64,000 nt of DNA. It comes from Dehalococcoidia bacterium. GTDB lineage: Bacteria; Chloroflexota; Dehalococcoidia; Bin125. Positions 7,933-63,921 of this stretch are shown one piece after another. Position 1 is the stretch's first letter. Every line of letters begins with the position of its first letter. The position numbers and the translations under genes were made by a program. The stretch covers positions 2,816,771 to 2,880,770 of the forward strand of contig OZ244584.1 in assembly GCA_965218115.1 (NCBI GenBank), read 5' to 3'. The notes under the pieces were generated by a model. It saw only the letters and a program-made list of their open reading frames with translations. It made no database searches and was not told the DNA's origin.

Positions 7933-9332
<1,400 letters not shown>

Positions 9333-9400
9333 GCGATTGGCCCAAGCGACGCCGACCAGGCGCCCCGATTGCGGCGCCAGCCTTACGGAGCTGAACCTGC

Positions 9401-10759
9401 ATGAGTGAAGCCACGCTCACCCTTGCACCGACCGACGATCCGGCGCTCGCGCCGCTCGGCGACCGCGTTGACGCGATCAGCGCGGCGCTCGACGAACCCG
9501 GTTGGCTGCGCGACCGCCGCCACGCCGCGCTCCAGCACGCGCTCGCGACCCCTTGGCCCTCCGTCAAGGAAGAGACCTGGCGGCGCACCCCGGAGCGTCT
9601 GCCGCGCCGGCTCGAGCCCGCGCTGCCGACGGCCAGGAACGGTGCGATCGCCGCACATCTCTTCGCGCCGCAGGCGCGCACCGGCCTCCTGCACCACGCC
9701 GCGGGCCTGGCCGTTGACGCCACGCTGCGGGCCGACGCTGAGGCCTCGGGCGTGTTGCTGGCGCCGCTCTCGGAGGCGGCCCGCGAGCACCCTGATCTGG
9801 TCCAGCGCTGGCTGGGCACGACACACGCCGGGTCGTTCGACCGCTACGGCGCGCTCGGCGCAGCGCTCTGGACGCAGGGCGTGTTCTGTTACATCCCGCC
9901 CCGGCTGCAGCTCCACCAGTCGCTGTTTCACCTCACCGCGCAGGCCGCCGACGCCTCAGACCTCTGGTCCTACACGCTGATCGCCGCCGACCGTGAGAGC
10001 GCTGCCTCCTTCGTCGAAGCCGGCGCCGGGCCGTCCGACGCGCGGGGCGACGGCGCCCGTGCACCGTTCATCCACAGCCTGATCGAGATCGTCGCCGCCG
10101 ACGCGGCGCAGCTCACGTTCGACACCGTCCAGCGCTGGAGCCCCAACACGGCCGCGCTGACCACCGCCGTCGGCGCGGTCGGGCGCGATGCCACGATCCA
10201 GTACAACACTGTCTCGATCGGCGCGGATGTCGACAAGCAGCGGATCGACATGGAGCTCGGTCAGCCGGGCGGCCATGCCGACCTCCACGGCGTCTTCGTC
10301 GGGCGTGGCCACCAGCACATCGAGCACATCACCAGGCAGCACCACAGCGGCGTCGGCGCGACCAGTGACCTGCTCGTTCGCGGCGTGCTCACCGACGAGT
10401 CGCACGCCGTGCAATACGGCGTGATCCAGATCGAGCCGGAGGGCCAGAAGACCGCCGCGTTCCAGACCATGCGCAACCTGCTGCTCGACGCGGGCGCGGG
10501 CGCAGACCCCATTCCGGTGCTCGAGATCGAGGCCGACGACGTCAAGTGCTCGCACGCCGCGGCCGTCGGGCCGGTCAGCCCCGAGCAGCTCTTCTACCTC
10601 GCGTCGCGCGGGATCCCGCCGGCGATCGCCGAGCGCATGGTCGTGCGCGGCTTCCTCGCCGAGATCATCGACGGCATCGCCGACGAGCACCTGCGCGAGG
10701 TGATCGACGAGCTGATCGAAGAGCAGCTACAGATTCCCCATACGGAGGTGCGCGAATGA
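9401..10759 (+). CDS. sufD: Fe-S cluster assembly protein SufD
   Basis: 452 aa SufB/SufD-family paralog downstream of sufB; C-terminal 'FYLASRGIPPAIAERMVVRGF'. Confidence 0.9.
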   Translation: MSEATLTLAPTDDPALAPLGDRVDAISAALDEPGWLRDRRHAALQHALATPWPSVKEETWRRTPERLPRRLEPALPTARNGAIAAHLFAPQARTGLLHHAAGLAVDATLRADAEASGVLLAPLSEAAREHPDLVQRWLGTTHAGSFDRYGALGAALWTQGVFCYIPPRLQLHQSLFHLTAQAADASDLWSYTLIAADRESAASFVEAGAGPSDARGDGARAPFIHSLIEIVAADAAQLTFDTVQRWSPNTAALTTAVGAVGRDATIQYNTVSIGADVDKQRIDMELGQPGGHADLHGVFVGRGHQHIEHITRQHHSGVGATSDLLVRGVLTDESHAVQYGVIQIEPEGQKTAAFQTMRNLLLDAGAGADPIPVLEIEADDVKCSHAAAVGPVSPEQLFYLASRGIPPAIAERMVVRGFLAEIIDGIADEHLREVIDELIEEQLQIPHTEVRE

Positions 10760-11073
10760 CCACCCATCAGCTCGGTCCGATCGATGATCTGCCCGCCGGC
10801 ACGGCGCGCGTCGTCGAGTGCGGGGGCCACAGCATCGCGCTCTGCCGCGTCGATTCGGGTGAGGTCTATGCGATCGAGAATCGCTGCACGCACGACGATG
10901 GCCCGCTCGGCGAAGGCGACCTCGAGGGCGTGATGCTCGAATGCCCGCGCCACGGCGCGCTGTTCGATGTCACTACCGGCGACGCGAAGACGCTGCCGGC
11001 TGTCGGTCGCGTCAGCTGCTACACGGTCTCGGTGGTCGAGGGCGAGCTGCAGCTCGAGGTGGACGCTTCGTGA
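10756..11073 (+). CDS. Rieske (2Fe-2S) ferredoxin-like protein
   Basis: 'CTHDDGPL...CPRHGALF' Rieske CXH...CXXH motifs; ATGA overlap with sufD stop, GTGA overlap with sufS start. Confidence 0.85.
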   Translation: MTTHQLGPIDDLPAGTARVVECGGHSIALCRVDSGEVYAIENRCTHDDGPLGEGDLEGVMLECPRHGALFDVTTGDAKTLPAVGRVSCYTVSVVEGELQLEVDAS

Positions 11074-12311
11074 CCGCGGCCGTGCTCGACATCGCGGCGA
11101 TTCGCGCCGACTTCCCGATCCTCTCGCGCCAGGTGCACGGGCGTCCGCTGGTCTATCTGGACAACGCCGCGACCACGCAGAAGCCGCGGCAGGTGATCGA
11201 CTCGCTCGTCGACTACTACTCCAACACCAACGCGAACATTCATCGCGGCCTGCACACGCTCGCCGAGGAGGCGACCGCCGCCTACGAGCTGACGCGCCGG
11301 AAGACCGCCGAATTCATCGGCGCGGCCAGCCCGCGCGAGGTCGTCTTCACGCGCAACACGACCGAATCACTCAACCTGCTCGCCTACACGCTTGGGGCGC
11401 GCCTGCGCCCCGGCGACGAGATCATCCTCTCGGCGCTTGAGCACCACTCCAACCTCGTGCCCTGGCAGCTCGTCACGCAGCGCAGCGGCGCGCGCCTCCG
11501 CTTCATCGAACTCGATGCGGATGGCGAATTCGACCTCGACCAGGCCCGCACGCTGTTCAACCAGCGCACGCGGATCGTCTCGATCGCCCACATGTCGAAC
11601 GTGCTGGGCACGATCGCTCCGGTCGCCGAGCTGTCCGAGATGGCGCACGCGGTCGACGCGACGATGATCATCGACGCCGCGCAGAGCGTCCCCCACCTGC
11701 CGCTCGACGTCGCGTCGCTGGGCGCCGACTTCGCAGCGTTCTCCGCACACAAGATGCTCGGCCCCACCGGGGTCGGCGTGCTCTGGGGCCGCCAGCAGCT
11801 GCTGGCCGACCTCGACCCCTTCCTCGGCGGCGGCGAGATGATCAGCGTCGTCAACCGCGAAGAGTCGAGCTGGGCGGCGCTGCCGCACAAGTTCGAGGCC
11901 GGCACGCCCAACATCGCCGATGTGGTCGCCTTCGGCGCGGCGCTTGACTACCTCTCCGGCCTGGGCATGCAGACGGTGCGTGACCACGACCACGCGCTGA
12001 CCGCCTACGCCATGGATCGCCTCTCGGCGATCGAGGGCCTCGAGATCTACGGTCCACCCGACGCCGAGCGGCGCGGCGCCGTCGTGGCGTTCAACTACGC
12101 TGACATTCACGCGCACGATGTCGCTACCATTCTCGACCGCGGCGGCGTCGCGGTGCGTGCGGGCCACCACTGCGCTCAGCCGCTGATGCGCTCGCTCGCC
12201 GTGCCCGCCACGGCCCGTGCGTCGTTCTACATCTACAACGAGATGTTCGAGATCGACGCGCTGGTTGACGGCCTGCGTGAGGCCGGCGAACGCTTCGGAC
12301 TGTCCGTCTAG
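11070..12311 (+). CDS. sufS: cysteine desulfurase SufS
   Basis: Class V aminotransferase, group II cysteine desulfurase blocks ('YLDNAATTQKP', 'SAHKMLGPTGVGVLWG', 'RAGHHCAQPL'); GTG start at 11070. Confidence 0.9.
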   Translation: MTAAVLDIAAIRADFPILSRQVHGRPLVYLDNAATTQKPRQVIDSLVDYYSNTNANIHRGLHTLAEEATAAYELTRRKTAEFIGAASPREVVFTRNTTESLNLLAYTLGARLRPGDEIILSALEHHSNLVPWQLVTQRSGARLRFIELDADGEFDLDQARTLFNQRTRIVSIAHMSNVLGTIAPVAELSEMAHAVDATMIIDAAQSVPHLPLDVASLGADFAAFSAHKMLGPTGVGVLWGRQQLLADLDPFLGGGEMISVVNREESSWAALPHKFEAGTPNIADVVAFGAALDYLSGLGMQTVRDHDHALTAYAMDRLSAIEGLEIYGPPDAERRGAVVAFNYADIHAHDVATILDRGGVAVRAGHHCAQPLMRSLAVPATARASFYIYNEMFEIDALVDGLREAGERFGLSV

Positions 12312-45809: not shown

Positions 45810-45986
45810 ATGAACGCCGGCTATGTGTTCTTGGGCGTGATTCTGATCCTCTCCCTGCTCTGGGTGGGGGGCTACATCAAGGTCGGCGGGGTGCTGTCGC
45901 TCTACCGTCGGATCCGGCTGGCCGCCCTGCTCGCGGTGGTGGCGCTGATCGCGATCGCGGCGACGCGCATCTTCGGACTCGCCTGA
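45810..45986 (+). CDS. small two-TM membrane protein (58 aa)
   Basis: 'MNAGYVFLGVILILSLLWVGGYIKVGGVLSLYRRIRLAALLAVVALIAIAA'; weak RBS. Confidence 0.3.
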   Translation: MNAGYVFLGVILILSLLWVGGYIKVGGVLSLYRRIRLAALLAVVALIAIAATRIFGLA

Positions 45987-59218: not shown

Positions 59219-60538
59219 GTGCGCCTCGCGCTGATCATCGTCGCCGTCGTGCTCTTGGCCGTTGGCTGTGGTGGCGACGCGGAGCGCGCTCCTCGCACGG
59301 TCGCGCCCGAGCCGGCCCAGGCTCAGCGCGAAGCCGGGCAGCAGTCAGCCACGGATCAGCCGCGGGCAACCGACGCGCCGACCGCTCCGGATCAGCCCGC
59401 CGCCGTTGAGCAGGGACGACCGCAGGAGTTGGTCGAAGCAGACGAGCCCGAACCTCAGCAGTCGGCGCCCGAACGCGCCGAACCGGTTGAGCAGCATCGC
59501 TTCATCGAGGCGCTAGAGGGGCGCACCTTCGAGCAACCAATCGAGCTGCTCGCCTGGCCGCAGGGCGGGCTGATGGTCGCCGAACAGCGCGGGAGCTTGA
59601 CGGTCTACGGCGAGGATGGCTCGATCCGCGGCCTGCTCGACCTCAGCGACCGCGTCAGGTTCGCCGGCGAGCGCGGCCTGCTCAGCGTCGCCGTCGACCC
59701 ACAGTTCGCCGAGCGGCCCTTCCTCTACATCTGGTATTCGCCGCGCAGCGCCGACCTCACGCGGCTGTCGCGCTTCTCGGTTGCGGACGGCGTCGCCGAT
59801 CGCGAATCGGAGCTGGTCATCCTCGAAGTCCGGCAGCCCTACGCCAACCACAACGGCGGCGCAGTCCGGTTCGGGCCCGACGGCATGCTGTATCTCGGCA
59901 TCGGCGATGGCGGAGCTGCCAACGATCCGCACGAGCACGGGCAGAATCGCGGGACGCTGCTGGGGACGATCATTCGGATCGACGTGAGCACTGCGTCGGC
60001 GCAGTATCGCTACGCCATCCCGGCCGACAATCCGTTCCTCGGCGTGCCCGGCGTGCGGCCCGAGATCTTCGCCTACGGCCTGCGCAATCCGTGGCGCATG
60101 GCCTTCGATCCCGACACCGGCGCCCTCTGGGTCGCCGACGTCGGTCAGAACCGCGTCGAGGAGGTGGGCATCGTCGAAGCGGGCACGAATCAGGGTTGGA
60201 ACGTCTTCGAGGGCGACGAGTGCTTCGGCCGCCAGTCGGACTGCGACGCGCTCGAGCACACCCCGCCGCTCGCGACCTACGGCCACGACCTCGGCTGCTC
60301 GGTCACCGGCGGCGTCGTCTACCGCGGCTCGGAGCTGCCCTGGCTGACGGGCGCCTACCTCTTCGCCGACTTCTGCACAGGCCGCGTCTGGGCGCTGCAG
60401 CGCGGCGAATCGGGCTGGGAAATCGCGCAACTCGAACAGCTCGACGCCCAGATCGCCTCCTTCGGCGTCGATCACGACGGCGAGGTCTACCTGCTGACGT
60501 TCGACGGACCGATCCTGCGACTGAGCCGCGCTGAGTAG
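59219..60538 (+). CDS. PQQ-dependent sugar (glucose/sorbosone) dehydrogenase-family lipoprotein
   Basis: Lipobox 'AVGCGG'; 'HNGGAVRFGPDGMLYLGIGDGG', 'FAYGLRNPWRMAFDPDTGALWVADVGQN' GSDH beta-propeller motifs. Confidence 0.8.
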   Translation: MRLALIIVAVVLLAVGCGGDAERAPRTVAPEPAQAQREAGQQSATDQPRATDAPTAPDQPAAVEQGRPQELVEADEPEPQQSAPERAEPVEQHRFIEALEGRTFEQPIELLAWPQGGLMVAEQRGSLTVYGEDGSIRGLLDLSDRVRFAGERGLLSVAVDPQFAERPFLYIWYSPRSADLTRLSRFSVADGVADRESELVILEVRQPYANHNGGAVRFGPDGMLYLGIGDGGAANDPHEHGQNRGTLLGTIIRIDVSTASAQYRYAIPADNPFLGVPGVRPEIFAYGLRNPWRMAFDPDTGALWVADVGQNRVEEVGIVEAGTNQGWNVFEGDECFGRQSDCDALEHTPPLATYGHDLGCSVTGGVVYRGSELPWLTGAYLFADFCTGRVWALQRGESGWEIAQLEQLDAQIASFGVDHDGEVYLLTFDGPILRLSRAE

Positions 60539-60685
60539 GCGTGCCGTTGCAACGGTCTCGTTCAGCAGGACTGACGGCGAGCCCGCAGAGGCGACGGCTG
60601 GTGTAGGAACGCCGATCGTGCCGCGTGGCGGCGACGGTAGAATGAGACCCACCCGACGAACGAAATACCACGGCAGGAGCCTCGG

Positions 60686-62185
60686 ATGGCCCAGTCCCGC
60701 GCTTTTGGAACCACGCCCGCACCGTCGATCCCCGAGGGGATGACCTGGCTGAATGCGGGACGCGATCTGACCATGGACGACCTGCGCGGGCGGCTGACGA
60801 TCCTGCATTTCTGGACTTACGCTTGAATCAACTGCTTGCACGTGCTTCCGCAGTTGCGGAGGCTTGAACGCCGCTACGCCGACGCCGTCCAGGTGGTCTC
60901 GGTCCATTCGCCCAAGTTCCCGACCGAGCGCGAGACCAAGAATCTGCGCCAGGCGGTGCTGCGGCTGCGTATCGAACATCCCGTCCTGAACGATGCCGAC
61001 TTCAAGTTCTGGCAGCAGTACGGCGCGCGGGCCTGGCCGACGATCTTCTTCGTCGACCCGCGCGGCAACGTGATCGGTCTGCACGAGGGCGAGCTGACCG
61101 AGGAGATGGTTGCGCCGCTGATCGATGGCTGGCTGGGCGAGTACGAGGCTGAGTCGCTGCTCAGCCGCCAACCGCTGGAGCTGACCCGCGAGACCGGCGC
61201 CGACAGCGCGCTCTCGTTTCCCGGCAAGCTGGCCTACGACGACGCGAGTGGCCGCCTGGTCGTTTCGGACTCAAACAACGACCGGATTCTGGTCGCCGAT
61301 CTCGATGGCAATGTCTCGCTCGTCGTCGGCGGCGCGGGCCACGGCTTCGACGACGGAACCGCGCAGACAGCGACGTTCAACCAGCCGCAGGGGGTCGCGA
61401 TCGACGGGAACACGATCTACGTGGCCGACAACGAGAACCACGCGATTCGTCGAATCGACCTGCCCTCGGGCGCAGTCACGACGATTGCCGGCACCGGCGA
61501 GCAGGCGCGCCAGATGCCCGCGGGCGCGCCCGCGACGATGACGCAGTTGAGTTCGCCCTGGGATGTCGCAGTTCACGACGGCGAACTGTTCATCGCGATG
61601 GCCGGAATTCACCAGCTCTGGTCGATGGACATCGAATCGGGCGCTTCCGCCACGGTCGGTCCCTGGGCCGGCAGCGGCCGCGAGGGGATCGTGGACGGTC
61701 CGCGACTACAGGCGGAGCTGGCGCAACCGAGCGGCCTCGCGGTGGGCGCGTCGGGGCTGGCGTTCGCCGACAGCGAATCCAGCGGCGCGCGCGAGGTGAG
61801 CTGGGATCCCGGCGGTCGCGTCGAGACGTTCATCGGCAACATCGGGAACCTGTTTCACTTCGGCGACGAGGACGGCGGCCGCGAGCTGGCCAAGCTCCAG
61901 CACCCGCTCGACGTCGCCTGGCTGGGCGACGAGCTGTACGTCGCCGACACGTTCAACCACAAGATCAAGCAGGTCTATCCGCGGATGCAGAGCGTCAAGA
62001 CGCTGCTCGGCGGGCTCGGCGATGCGCTGGGCTCATTCTCCGCGACTCGGCTCGATGAACCGGGCGGACTCTGCACCGGGCCGGCTCGGTCGTTGCTCGT
62101 GGCCGACACGAACAATCACCGGATCGTCCAGCTCGACATGGCCGGCGGCCGCTCCACCGAAATCCCCCTAAACCTCCCCAATTGA
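60686..62185 (+). CDS. thioredoxin-fold (TlpA/redoxin-like) plus NHL-repeat protein with in-frame TGA (60824..60826) at the first Cys of the redox motif; candidate selenoprotein (UxxC)
   Basis: ATG 60686 after 'AGGAG' RBS; frame 60686..60823 encodes 'LTILHFWTYA-[TGA]-INCLHVLP' = conserved redoxin 'FWTYxCINC' with TGA replacing Cys; same frame continues into the 60836..62185 ORF (redoxin remainder 'VSVHSPKFPTE...WPTIFFVDPRGN' plus 5-6 NHL repeats); hairpin 60830..60861 directly downstream of TGA. Confidence 0.65.
60830..60861 (+). promoter_or_regulatory. candidate bacterial SECIS-like stem-loop 4-36 nt downstream of the in-frame UGA
   Basis: AACUGC-[UUGCACGUGCUUCC]-GCAGUU (6-bp stem, G/U-containing apical region with internal GCACGUGC) and overlapping alternative UUCCGC-AGUU-GCGGAG. 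Confidence 0.45.
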
Positions 62186-62210: not shown

Positions 62211-63413
62211 ATGGCGCAAGCGGAACACACCGGTAGCAGGCGCGCACCGAGCGGGGCAGTGGAGGTCACGCCGAGCGTCATCGAGTGGGCAATCGCAGAA
62301 TCGGGCATGAATACCGCCGACCTGGCAGTGCGCGTCGGTGTTTCTGAGGCTGACGTGGAAGCCTGGACCCGCGGCGCGGCGAAGCCGAATCGGGGCGAAT
62401 TCACCAAGCTAGCCACGGCCTTGGCTCGGCCGACGGCCGTGTTCTTCCTGCCGACACCACCCGACGGGTCCGATATACCGCCGCAGTTCCGCACGTTCGG
62501 GCGAGCGCTAGACCCAACACTGGGCCCCAACGAGCTGCTGGCAATTCGCGAGGCTTCGCGACTTCAAAGCCTCGTCAGTTGGATCCTCAAGGATGAGGGT
62601 CATCGCTCCGAGATGCTTACGTCCCTGCCGAGCACGCCGATGGGTGATCCCATAGCTGACTTCGCGTCTGCGCTCCGCACGTGGCTGGGCGTGTCCATTG
62701 ATCAACAGCTCGGGTGGACAAGTCCCGCTGAGGCGTTCCGATCGTGGCGGTCCGCGCTGGAACGTAACGGCGTGATCGTCACGCAGCGCAGTTTCGGACG
62801 CGACAGCATTCGTGGCTTCTCTCTTGCAGACGAGTGGGCGCCGCTGATTGTGGTCAATCGCTCGGAGATCCCGCAGGCGCGATCGTTCACGCTGTTGCAC
62901 GAGCTGGCGCATCTCGCCTCCGAACCGGGTTCGGGCTGCGTGCTGCCATCGGACTACGACGGCGACGCCAAACACCGGGAGCGGTGGTGCGACCGCGTCG
63001 CCAGTCATGTCTTGGTGCCGCGCGATGTCGTCGATAGCGAGATCCGGGCGCTCGCCCGCGGTCAGTCGCTTACACCATTCGCGCTTGTCGAGAGGGCGGC
63101 CCGACGATTCAAAGTGAGCCTTCGCGCGGCGGCCGTGGCGCTGATGGATCGTGGGCACGCTCCGCCGAACACGTTTGCCGTCGTGAAGCAGCACGCGCCT
63201 GTCAGCGACTATCCGCCGCCACCCACAGACGCTGATCAGTTGGTTGGTCCGATGGAGACCACCGCGGTCAAGCGCCTGCGTGAGGTAGGTCCCCTGGCGC
63301 TTGAATCGCTGATCCGCGCGAGCAAACGCGATCGGATCACACTGCACGACGTGTTCGACTATCTCGACATCAACAGCATCGAGTTTGACGAGTTGCAGCG
63401 CGAGATGAACTGA
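62211..63413 (+). CDS. ImmA/IrrE-family (COG2856, M78) metallopeptidase with N-terminal XRE-type HTH
   Basis: HTH 'VIEWAIAESGMNTADLAVRVGVSEADVEAWTRG'; 'SFTLLHELAHL' HExxH zinc site; 400 aa. Confidence 0.85.
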   Translation: MAQAEHTGSRRAPSGAVEVTPSVIEWAIAESGMNTADLAVRVGVSEADVEAWTRGAAKPNRGEFTKLATALARPTAVFFLPTPPDGSDIPPQFRTFGRALDPTLGPNELLAIREASRLQSLVSWILKDEGHRSEMLTSLPSTPMGDPIADFASALRTWLGVSIDQQLGWTSPAEAFRSWRSALERNGVIVTQRSFGRDSIRGFSLADEWAPLIVVNRSEIPQARSFTLLHELAHLASEPGSGCVLPSDYDGDAKHRERWCDRVASHVLVPRDVVDSEIRALARGQSLTPFALVERAARRFKVSLRAAAVALMDRGHAPPNTFAVVKQHAPVSDYPPPPTDADQLVGPMETTAVKRLREVGPLALESLIRASKRDRITLHDVFDYLDINSIEFDELQREMN

Positions 63414-63426
63414 GCAATGCGGCCCC

Positions 63427-63921
63427 TTGTCTGACGTCTGGATCTTCGATACCTCTGCTTTGATCGACATCAAGCACGATGTCCCGGAGCGTTGGCATGC
63501 TGATCTCCTCGAGGAACTAACGGATCGAGTAGAGGACGGGACGCTTTGCTTTCCACGGCAGGTCACCGCCGAACTGACGGCTCGCGCTCGCGACGATTTT
63601 CTCGCGACCTGGGTGAAGCGCGTCAATCGCTCCGTGCGACACCACTACAGTCCGCCGGAATCGGCGCTACGGGAGGTGCTCCGCAGGCATCCCAAGCTCG
63701 CCGATCAGCGCAAGAAGCGGGATGACGCTGATCCGTTCGTGGTAGCGCAGGCACTGGCGATCAAACGCGAGGGCCTGACAGTGACGGTCGTCACGCGGGA
63801 CCTGATCGATCGACTACCGCATACGATCTCGATCGCGACTGCCTGCGACGATCTCAAGATCGACCACGTGCGGCTGATTAGGTTCCTCGACCAAATCGGA
63901 TTCGATCCATTCGCCGATTAG
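63427..63921 (+). CDS. DUF4411-family PIN-like protein
   Basis: 'VWIFDTSALIDIK...' N-terminal acidic PIN-like strand, 'DADPFVVAQALA' second acidic block; 164 aa; 13 nt downstream of ImmA/IrrE gene. Confidence 0.8.
   Translation: MSDVWIFDTSALIDIKHDVPERWHADLLEELTDRVEDGTLCFPRQVTAELTARARDDFLATWVKRVNRSVRHHYSPPESALREVLRRHPKLADQRKKRDDADPFVVAQALAIKREGLTVTVVTRDLIDRLPHTISIATACDDLKIDHVRLIRFLDQIGFDPFAD

Follow-up and report, generated by a model that had tools for sequence, protein, structure and literature searches.

The window analysed here is a 64,000-nucleotide stretch of contig OZ244584.1 from a Dehalococcoidia bacterium (assembly GCA_965218115.1), and the candidate selenoprotein gene that it carries lies near its end, on the plus strand at 60686-62185. 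The reading frame opens with an ATG at 60686-60688, runs through 46 sense codons that end in ...GRLTILHFWTYA (LTILHFWTYA), meets a TGA as codon 47 (60824-60826), resumes with INCLHVLPQLRRLERRY (INCLHVLPQL...) and stays open for 452 more codons down to its own stop, a TGA at 62183-62185, making 499 codons in all. A Shine-Dalgarno-like AGGAG (60675-60679, plus strand) can be read from the sequence ahead of the ATG, with a 6-nt spacer, and inspection of the sequence upstream of TTG 60836 and GTG 60842 found no comparable purine-rich site. A preliminary description of the stretch, made from the sequence alone, had started the gene at this ATG with a good ribosome-binding site and had carried its frame through the TGA into the downstream open reading frame (ORF), and the AGGAG and the translation agree with it; it had also let the downstream ORF begin with an ATG at 60836, which was wrong, as the listed ORF begins there with a TTG. 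The predicted full-length product has 499 residues including a putative selenocysteine (Sec) at residue 47, the first position of a U-I-N-C motif, and Cys50 (TGC, 60833-60835, plus strand), which would be the resolving Cys of this UxxC, does not vary among the 57 unique clade sequences (TGC in 31, TGT in 26).

Two domains were recognised when the read-through product, with Cys written for the TGA codon, was compared with Pfam. Residues 23-140 matched PF13905 (Thioredoxin_8, 6.6e-12), PF00578 (AhpC-TSA, 6e-10) and PF08534 (Redoxin, 6.5e-7) as well as structures of the DipZ/ResA/TlpA type, and they form a thioredoxin-like domain of TlpA/redoxin type (about residues 23-140; 60752-61105, plus strand). 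NHL repeats (PF01436, 3.4e-30, plus PF25021) form a beta-propeller at about residues 172-493 (61199-62164, plus strand), and the propeller-only chains 6g7w and 7djm match residues 172-493. In the thioredoxin-like domain the candidate for the cis-Pro is Pro118 of the sequence A-W-P-T (61037-61039, plus strand), and W117, P118 and T119 are invariant in 20 of 20 aligned sequences. Human NHLRC2 (6gc1) was matched over residues 12-487 with E = 1.3e-103 and the lumenal domains of Arabidopsis SOQ1 (7djj) with E = 1.4e-103 (overall span about 10-493). These matches place the gene product, as a bacterial representative, in the NHLRC2/SOQ1 family, and the homology is not in doubt. A cytoplasmic location is suggested by the translation, whose N-terminus lacks a hydrophobic segment.

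Several features of TlpA/ResA-like proteins are present (the thioredoxin fold, UxxC in the place of CxxC, the conserved Pro118, and ResA, DipZ and StoA as structural relatives). The NCBIfam models of ResA, StoA and TlpA were matched only far below cut-off, and because these equivalog cut-offs were not reached the protein is not one of the named enzymes. As to peroxiredoxins, of which PxxxT/SxxC is the peroxidatic motif, PF00578 scored 39.6 bits (cut-off 26), which is below PF13905, and T-Y-A-U is present with no Pro at -7; the name 'alkyl hydroperoxide reductase', under which the named NCBI records among the truncated database matches (see below) are filed, probably reflects superfamily similarity only.

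We fetched the DNA of 80 relatives, each from a different species-representative genome, and the motif was covered in 78 of them. The motif codon is an in-frame TGA in 68 of the 78 related loci and TGC or TGT in the other 10 (with the window counted, TGA in 69 of 79 sequences), and tblastn matches ran across the TGA, over query residues 1-498, in more than 50 genomes. A chance TGA is excluded: 68 further loci, no two of them from the same species-representative genome, have it at this codon. The same TGA allele is carried by the complete chromosomes OZ250140.1 (protein 97% identical), OZ253504.1 and OZ244908.1, and an identical TGA on four metagenome contigs, with both short-read and long-read projects represented. 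The TGA forms come from Dehalococcoidia, Chloroflexia, Ktedonobacteria and one Longimicrobiales metagenome-assembled genome (MAG), and the codon stands in three sequence contexts, A-U, C-U and G-U: FWTYA-U-INC is the context of a large Dehalococcoidia clade; FWTYC-U-IGC occurs in L060 and L062, and FWTLC-U-INC or FWTFC-U-INC in L064, L065 and L072 (two of them Ktedonobacteraceae MAGs, one with the label Chloroflexia); Chloroflexia and the Longimicrobiales MAG have FWTYG-U-INC, and L070 has FWTFG-U-INC. Among the Cys forms are the Ktedonobacteria isolates Tengunoibacter and Dictyobacter.

In the alignment, full-length database homologues read DFWTY-C-C-I-N-C-MHVLP where the window reads FWTY-A-TGA-I-N-C, and the TGA falls opposite the second Cys of CC-I-N-C, i.e., the first Cys of the CxxC pair, also when the human structure 6gc1 (...fftyCCinC...) is included. 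The preliminary description had placed the TGA at the first Cys of the CxxC redox centre and had proposed an alignment with Cys orthologues as a check; that alignment bore it out, a TGC or TGT codon pairing with the TGA in the 10 fetched Cys loci and a Cys standing there in all full-length database homologues. Protein-level selection is evident on both sides of the TGA. Upstream of it, the invariant residues Gly-12, Arg-11 and Arg-21 are each written with four different codons, and since residues are held while codons drift, the 46 upstream codons are translated; by this pattern of codon use they are under purifying selection at the protein level.

A candidate for a bacterial Sec insertion sequence (SECIS) lies within the coding sequence, shortly after the UGA. 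Its core, which we call helix B (CUUCCGC-AGUU-GCGGAGG, 60845-60862, plus strand), is a 7-bp stem with a 4-nt loop that is present in the centroid structure and scores -14.7 kcal/mol; an eighth pair (60844/60863) is possible in the window and is not conserved. The helix starts 18 nt past the TGA, and the gap between TGA and loop is 25 nt. In the published model of the bacterial SECIS, an apical loop of 3-9 nt, a stem of 4-16 bp, a UGA-to-loop distance of 16-37 nt and a minimum free energy of at most -7.5 kcal/mol are expected, and the loop has a G within its first two positions, usually followed by G or U (PMC13188914). Set against these published constraints, helix B passes four of four (AGUU loop, 7-8 bp, 25 nt, -14.7 kcal/mol).

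The evidence for helix B is comparative. Among 45 distinct TGA-bearing sequences, 92% of cells pair in its register versus 34-63% in slid registers, both sides have changed at four of eight pairs (UA to CG or GC, CG to GC, GC to UA), and the covariation score was matched by none of 500 shuffles. An analysis of synonymous sites in the 57 unique clade sequences, which is independent of any folding model, found codons +8 to +12 (CCG CAG TTG CGG AAG) to be identical in 57 of 57. Synonymous variation was zero in only 7 of 90 conserved degenerate codons, five of which make up this run (for a run of at least five invariant codons, p is about 5e-5 by simulation); Leu +10 is always TTG and Leu +7 mostly CTT (46 of 57), two codons seldom used for the other conserved Leu residues there, for which CTG or CTC prevails. 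Local folding energies average -13.2 kcal/mol over 69 TGA sequences and -5.2 kcal/mol over 10 Cys genes. The hairpin tracks the TGA, and most Cys forms have only a weak one or none.

Two Cys-form Ktedonobacteria genes (L074 and L077) keep a hairpin at the SECIS position, about 20-40 nt past their TGC or TGT codon (-10.4 and -8.9 kcal/mol, respectively), the strongest two of the Cys group. They may be left over from a SECIS after a recent change from Sec to Cys, a reading with which the TGA in their Ktedonobacteria relatives is consistent, and SECIS remnants in Cys forms have been described (PMC1794560). In a Chloroflexia subgroup with the G-U-I-N-C context (L068, L069, L071, L079 and L080) the hairpin is shifted by about 1.5 nt and has a GUC or AGUUC loop, e.g., GCCGGCG-GUC-CGCCGGC in L068, of which L071 has a compensatory variant (GCCUGCG/CGCAGGC). 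Two members of this subgroup, L069 and L080, fold weakly at the hairpin site (-6.2 and -6.5 kcal/mol), and their SECIS may be atypical.

The preliminary description had placed a stable hairpin in the position of a bacterial SECIS, and a hairpin does follow the UGA closely, but the functional candidate is 60845-60862 and not the pairing that had been named. The latter, helix A (CAACUGC at 60829-60835 with GCAGUUG at 60850-60856, plus strand; -7.8 kcal/mol), exists and is mutually exclusive with helix B. It has a 14-nt loop that starts 9 nt past the UGA and fails the SECIS model on loop size and spacing. It is pairable in 99.7% of cells in the same 45 sequences, with no double changes, and it cannot be told from shuffles, because its 3' arm is invariant and nearly all changes in the 5' arm are synonymous C/U transitions, with G pairing either way. 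We therefore rejected helix A as the SECIS for want of informative covariation and for its geometry. The whole window gave no match to Rfam at gathering thresholds, and a permissive Rfam search of 60780-60920 returned only mir-238 at 18 bits, which we judged to be a chance match.

Taken with the truncated database proteins described below, the conserved TGA, its pairing with Cys, the selection upstream and the covarying hairpin all point the same way, and every comparative test made supported the proposal of the preliminary description that a UxxC selenoprotein gene had been mis-called as a truncated ORF. On these comparisons we consider it very probable that 60686-62185 is a genuine, mis-annotated selenoprotein gene in which the UGA at 60824 is read as Sec. 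Several observations weigh against this reading. Neither the 64-kb window nor the 20-kb flanking stretches of the Dehalococcoidia loci yielded tRNA-Sec, selA, selB or selD; a GC3-based scan (GC content at third codon positions) found no second TGA-interrupted gene in the window or in the locus flanks; the hairpin is also retained in the two Cys-form genes mentioned above (L074 and L077); its symmetry is partly imposed by the peptide L-P-Q-L-R-K; a competing helix (A) can form; and the 71-nt region folds no better than shuffled GC-rich sequence (z = +0.65), so that stability alone is not evidence and the case for the hairpin rests on comparison.

The search for the Sec machinery covered the window and all fetched loci. 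ARAGORN found no tRNA-Sec in the window, in 60 loci and in four metagenome loci (the window is without any tRNA gene), and tblastn with E. coli SelA, SelB and SelD queries gave a single match, to SelD in the Chloroflexia MAG locus L071. There, selD (8915-9979) ends 22 nt ahead of the TGA-containing homologue (10001-11491) and has an in-frame TGA of its own at the catalytic position (...FCAG-U-ASKMGP...); its part after the TGA is identical to a protein (P0121) that the Joint Genome Institute (JGI) has named 'selenide, water dikinase'. As a selD with an in-frame TGA directly precedes the redoxin-NHL gene, two selenoprotein genes would stand back to back in L071; this adjacency was not seen in L079 and L080, in which the full upstream flanks are present. 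Another TGA orthologue (L032) lies on MPNM01000003.1, which belongs to bin125 of a study of the sponge Aplysina aerophoba, and for this bin Table S4 gives one COG1921 (SelA) and one COG3276 (SelB) (PMC5649159). BSepDB counts 49 and 46 selenoprotein genes in two Dehalococcoidia MAGs, which puts both of them in its top ten of bacteria (PMC13326102). These finds in relatives are indirect evidence on the Sec machinery that the preliminary description had asked for in the genome itself. A metagenome scan with a TGA-plus-SECIS pattern yielded four contigs only, and no sel genes were found near the pattern on them.

The window was also scanned for further TGA genes. A scan based on codon-usage log-odds did not discriminate; the GC3-based scan recovered the target and gave four in-frame TGAs, the target included, with coding-like sequence on both sides. 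The TGAs at 45984 (plus strand) and 27390 (minus strand) were rejected as Sec codons, each being followed within a few codons by a new Met and a fresh protein, so that they look like junctions of adjacent genes in the same frame; the one at 59347 (minus strand) lies on the opposite strand inside the upstream dehydrogenase-like gene and is probably a shadow frame.

It is highly improbable that the UGA is read through but not as Sec, whether decoded as Trp, Cys or Arg in a near-cognate or suppressor manner or reassigned throughout the lineage. Such an explanation draws on the absence of sel genes from the window and on the fact that Sec insertion is itself deduced from sequence, but it would leave unaccounted for that Cys alone stands opposite the UGA, and at a catalytic redox position, which is the signature of Sec, and that a hairpin of SECIS type lies at the canonical distance. 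TGA is not reassigned in the gene's own frame, since the gene itself terminates at a TGA (62183-62185), and the other three TGAs from the scan of the window are probable gene junctions or a shadow frame; furthermore, relatives carry selD, SelA and SelB.

A genuine stop at codon 47 is what gene callers have assumed. In a search of 5.8 billion proteins the 81 best matches (57-96% identity), which come from uncultured Chloroflexota where a source is named, have only 422-462 aa and cover 86-90% of the query, and no full-length match (94-99% coverage) has more than 53% identity. Aligned with the window, database homologues begin at the equivalent of TTG 60836, of GTG 60842 or of a later codon, and the truncated proteins all start right after the motif, with (M)HVLPQL, (M)LPQL or (M)RKL, so that the calls are without strand beta-1 and the whole U/CxxC motif; that gene callers would lose the redox motif, as the preliminary description had anticipated, holds for 81 of the 81 best database proteins. 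Were these calls right, the locus would be a pseudogene, or only the ORF from TTG 60836 or GTG 60842 to 62185 would be expressed, as an NHL protein with a crippled thioredoxin-like domain. This we consider highly improbable. The treatment of the gene in all 81 closest database entries and the lack of visible Sec machinery in the window speak for a stop, but a nonsense codon would not persist at one and the same codon in 69 sequences from several classes, the 46 codons upstream of it would not stay under protein-level selection, and the product would be without strand beta-1 and the entire redox motif. Moreover, the AGGAG stands before 60686 and no Shine-Dalgarno sequence before 60836 or 60842, and a stop leaves both the covariation of the hairpin and the suppression of synonymous change unexplained. 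That sequencing or assembly turned a TGC or TGT into this TGA, a difference of a single base, is a negligible possibility, given the identical TGA in 68 independently assembled genomes and in four metagenome contigs from short-read and long-read data.

If the gene is read as a selenoprotein gene, it is mechanistically ordinary. Codon 47 would be decoded as Sec with the help of the mRNA hairpin at 60845-60862, within the coding sequence 18 nt past the UGA, whose G-U-containing tetraloop would recruit SelB-GTP-Sec-tRNA(Sec) to the ribosome, and Sec would then be inserted in place of termination. In the protein, Sec47 and Cys50 may cycle between the selenolate/thiol and the selenenylsulfide forms. 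In NHLRC2 the motif is located at the N-terminus of alpha-1, beside the conserved cis-Pro, and faces the cleft of the propeller (PMC6107167); by analogy the U-I-N-C motif would face such a cleft, presumably the place where the substrate is held. Classical thioredoxin assays detect no activity of NHLRC2, for which no substrate is known (PMC6107167; bioRxiv 10.1101/2024.11.01.621559), and SOQ1 needs the cysteines of the motif, its lumenal domains being reported to reduce methionine sulfoxide in a target (bioRxiv 10.1101/2024.11.01.621559). A likely activity of the window protein would be thiol-disulfide exchange or the reduction of an oxidised protein, e.g., of methionine sulfoxide as reported for SOQ1.

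No clue to the function of the selenoprotein gene comes from its neighbours. Upstream of it lies a glucose/sorbosone dehydrogenase-like (GSDH) gene (59219-60538), the product of which ends in ...GPILRLS or ...GPILKL, and in many Dehalococcoidia loci (L003-L005, L009, L020, L022 and others) it is found in synteny with the selenoprotein gene. Directly downstream, a gene for an IrrE/Peptidase_M78-type protein (62211-63413) is followed after 14 nt by one for a DUF4411 protein (63427-63921), an arrangement reminiscent of toxin-antitoxin or defence-type pairs. On the other strand, a 552-aa ORF (59513-61171, minus strand), which overlaps both the selenoprotein gene and its upstream neighbour, was rejected as a gene and regarded as a shadow frame (GC1, the GC content at first codon positions, 0.86 and GC3 0.69, in DNA of 69% GC).

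Selenoprotein catalogues list generic entries such as 'Thiol-disulfide isomerase-like' (cd02966) and 'Redoxin family protein' (PF08534, UxxC). In the searchable literature no selenoprotein of NHL-fused or NHLRC2/SOQ1 type came to light, nor did the string 'UINC' occur in the examined part of the GOS selenoprotein datasets; the family Unknown_3, with a conserved CxxC and three conserved Cys, was rejected as a counterpart, the NHL domain being without these. We see an even chance that the Sec-containing NHLRC2/SOQ1 orthologues are an undescribed selenoprotein family (the catalogue entries HEU0032618.1 and MGB1650493.1 are known here by generic label only), which would be widespread in uncultured marine and sponge-associated Dehalococcoidia and would also occur in Chloroflexia, Ktedonobacteria and Gemmatimonadota. 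For the marine and sponge-associated Dehalococcoidia it would add one more gene to already large selenoproteomes. In public collections at least 81 protein clusters are cut short at this codon and lose the active site, and NCBIfam has no model for the family that could rescue them.

The exchange of Sec and Cys may also say something about the eukaryotic members of the family. Since a Sec/Cys pair is a mark of a catalytic redox residue, the catalytic nucleophile would be the second Cys of CCINC (Cys-90 in human NHLRC2). If this is true, a nucleophile is identified in a protein of unknown biochemical function whose loss causes FINCA disease, and the redox function would need neither the first Cys of the motif nor the C-terminal domain. 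The repeated exchange of Sec and Cys at one position of CCINC would be independent evolutionary evidence that NHLRC2 and SOQ1 are true redox enzymes which use that residue, and a two-domain bacterial version that is naturally activated by Sec could be a convenient enzyme for finding the NHLRC2 substrate.

With the consensus bacterial SECIS, of which E. coli fdhF is the archetype, the candidate hairpin shares the position in the ORF, the 25-nt gap, a 4-nt loop with G-U at positions 2-3 and an upper stem of 7-8 bp; it differs in that neither a bulged nucleotide nor a conserved lower stem containing the UGA was detected. Thioredoxin- and TlpA-like selenoproteins carry Sec for the first Cys of CxxC, have widespread Cys homologues and a SECIS in the coding sequence after the UGA, and their genes are routinely truncated (PMC1794560; PMC2398784; PMC13188914). 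The window gene resembles these thioredoxin-fold UxxC selenoproteins in the place of the putative Sec, in the hairpin within the coding sequence after the UGA and in its truncated annotation, whereas its thioredoxin-like domain has a six-bladed NHL propeller fused to it, and its predicted product is an NHLRC2/SOQ1 orthologue. The closest stand-alone thioredoxin-like structures are the C-terminal domain of Mycobacterium tuberculosis DipZ (2hyx) and ResA/TlpA (E about 3e-19); the DipZ motif is S-C-I-N-C (PMC6107167), and these proteins differ from the window protein as periplasmic or extracytoplasmic Cys enzymes with no propeller.

From NHLRC2 and SOQ1 themselves the window protein differs in the motif, the literal CC(I/V)NC being replaced by A-U-I-N-C, with the first Cys lost and the second represented by the putative Sec (other relatives read C-U-I-N-C, C-U-I-G-C or G-U-I-N-C), and in the beta-stranded domain at the C-terminus, which is absent: the protein ends after the propeller at 499 aa, and Cys homologues of 630-680 aa have about 150 residues more. 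Biterova et al. called this domain of NHLRC2 non-conserved (PMC6107167); in SOQ1 it has been proposed as the carrier of Msr-type cysteines, and the window protein does without it, as it also does without a HAD domain and a membrane anchor. What it has in common with both is the order of a thioredoxin-like domain followed by an NHL propeller, with the x-C-I-N-C active site at the same place.

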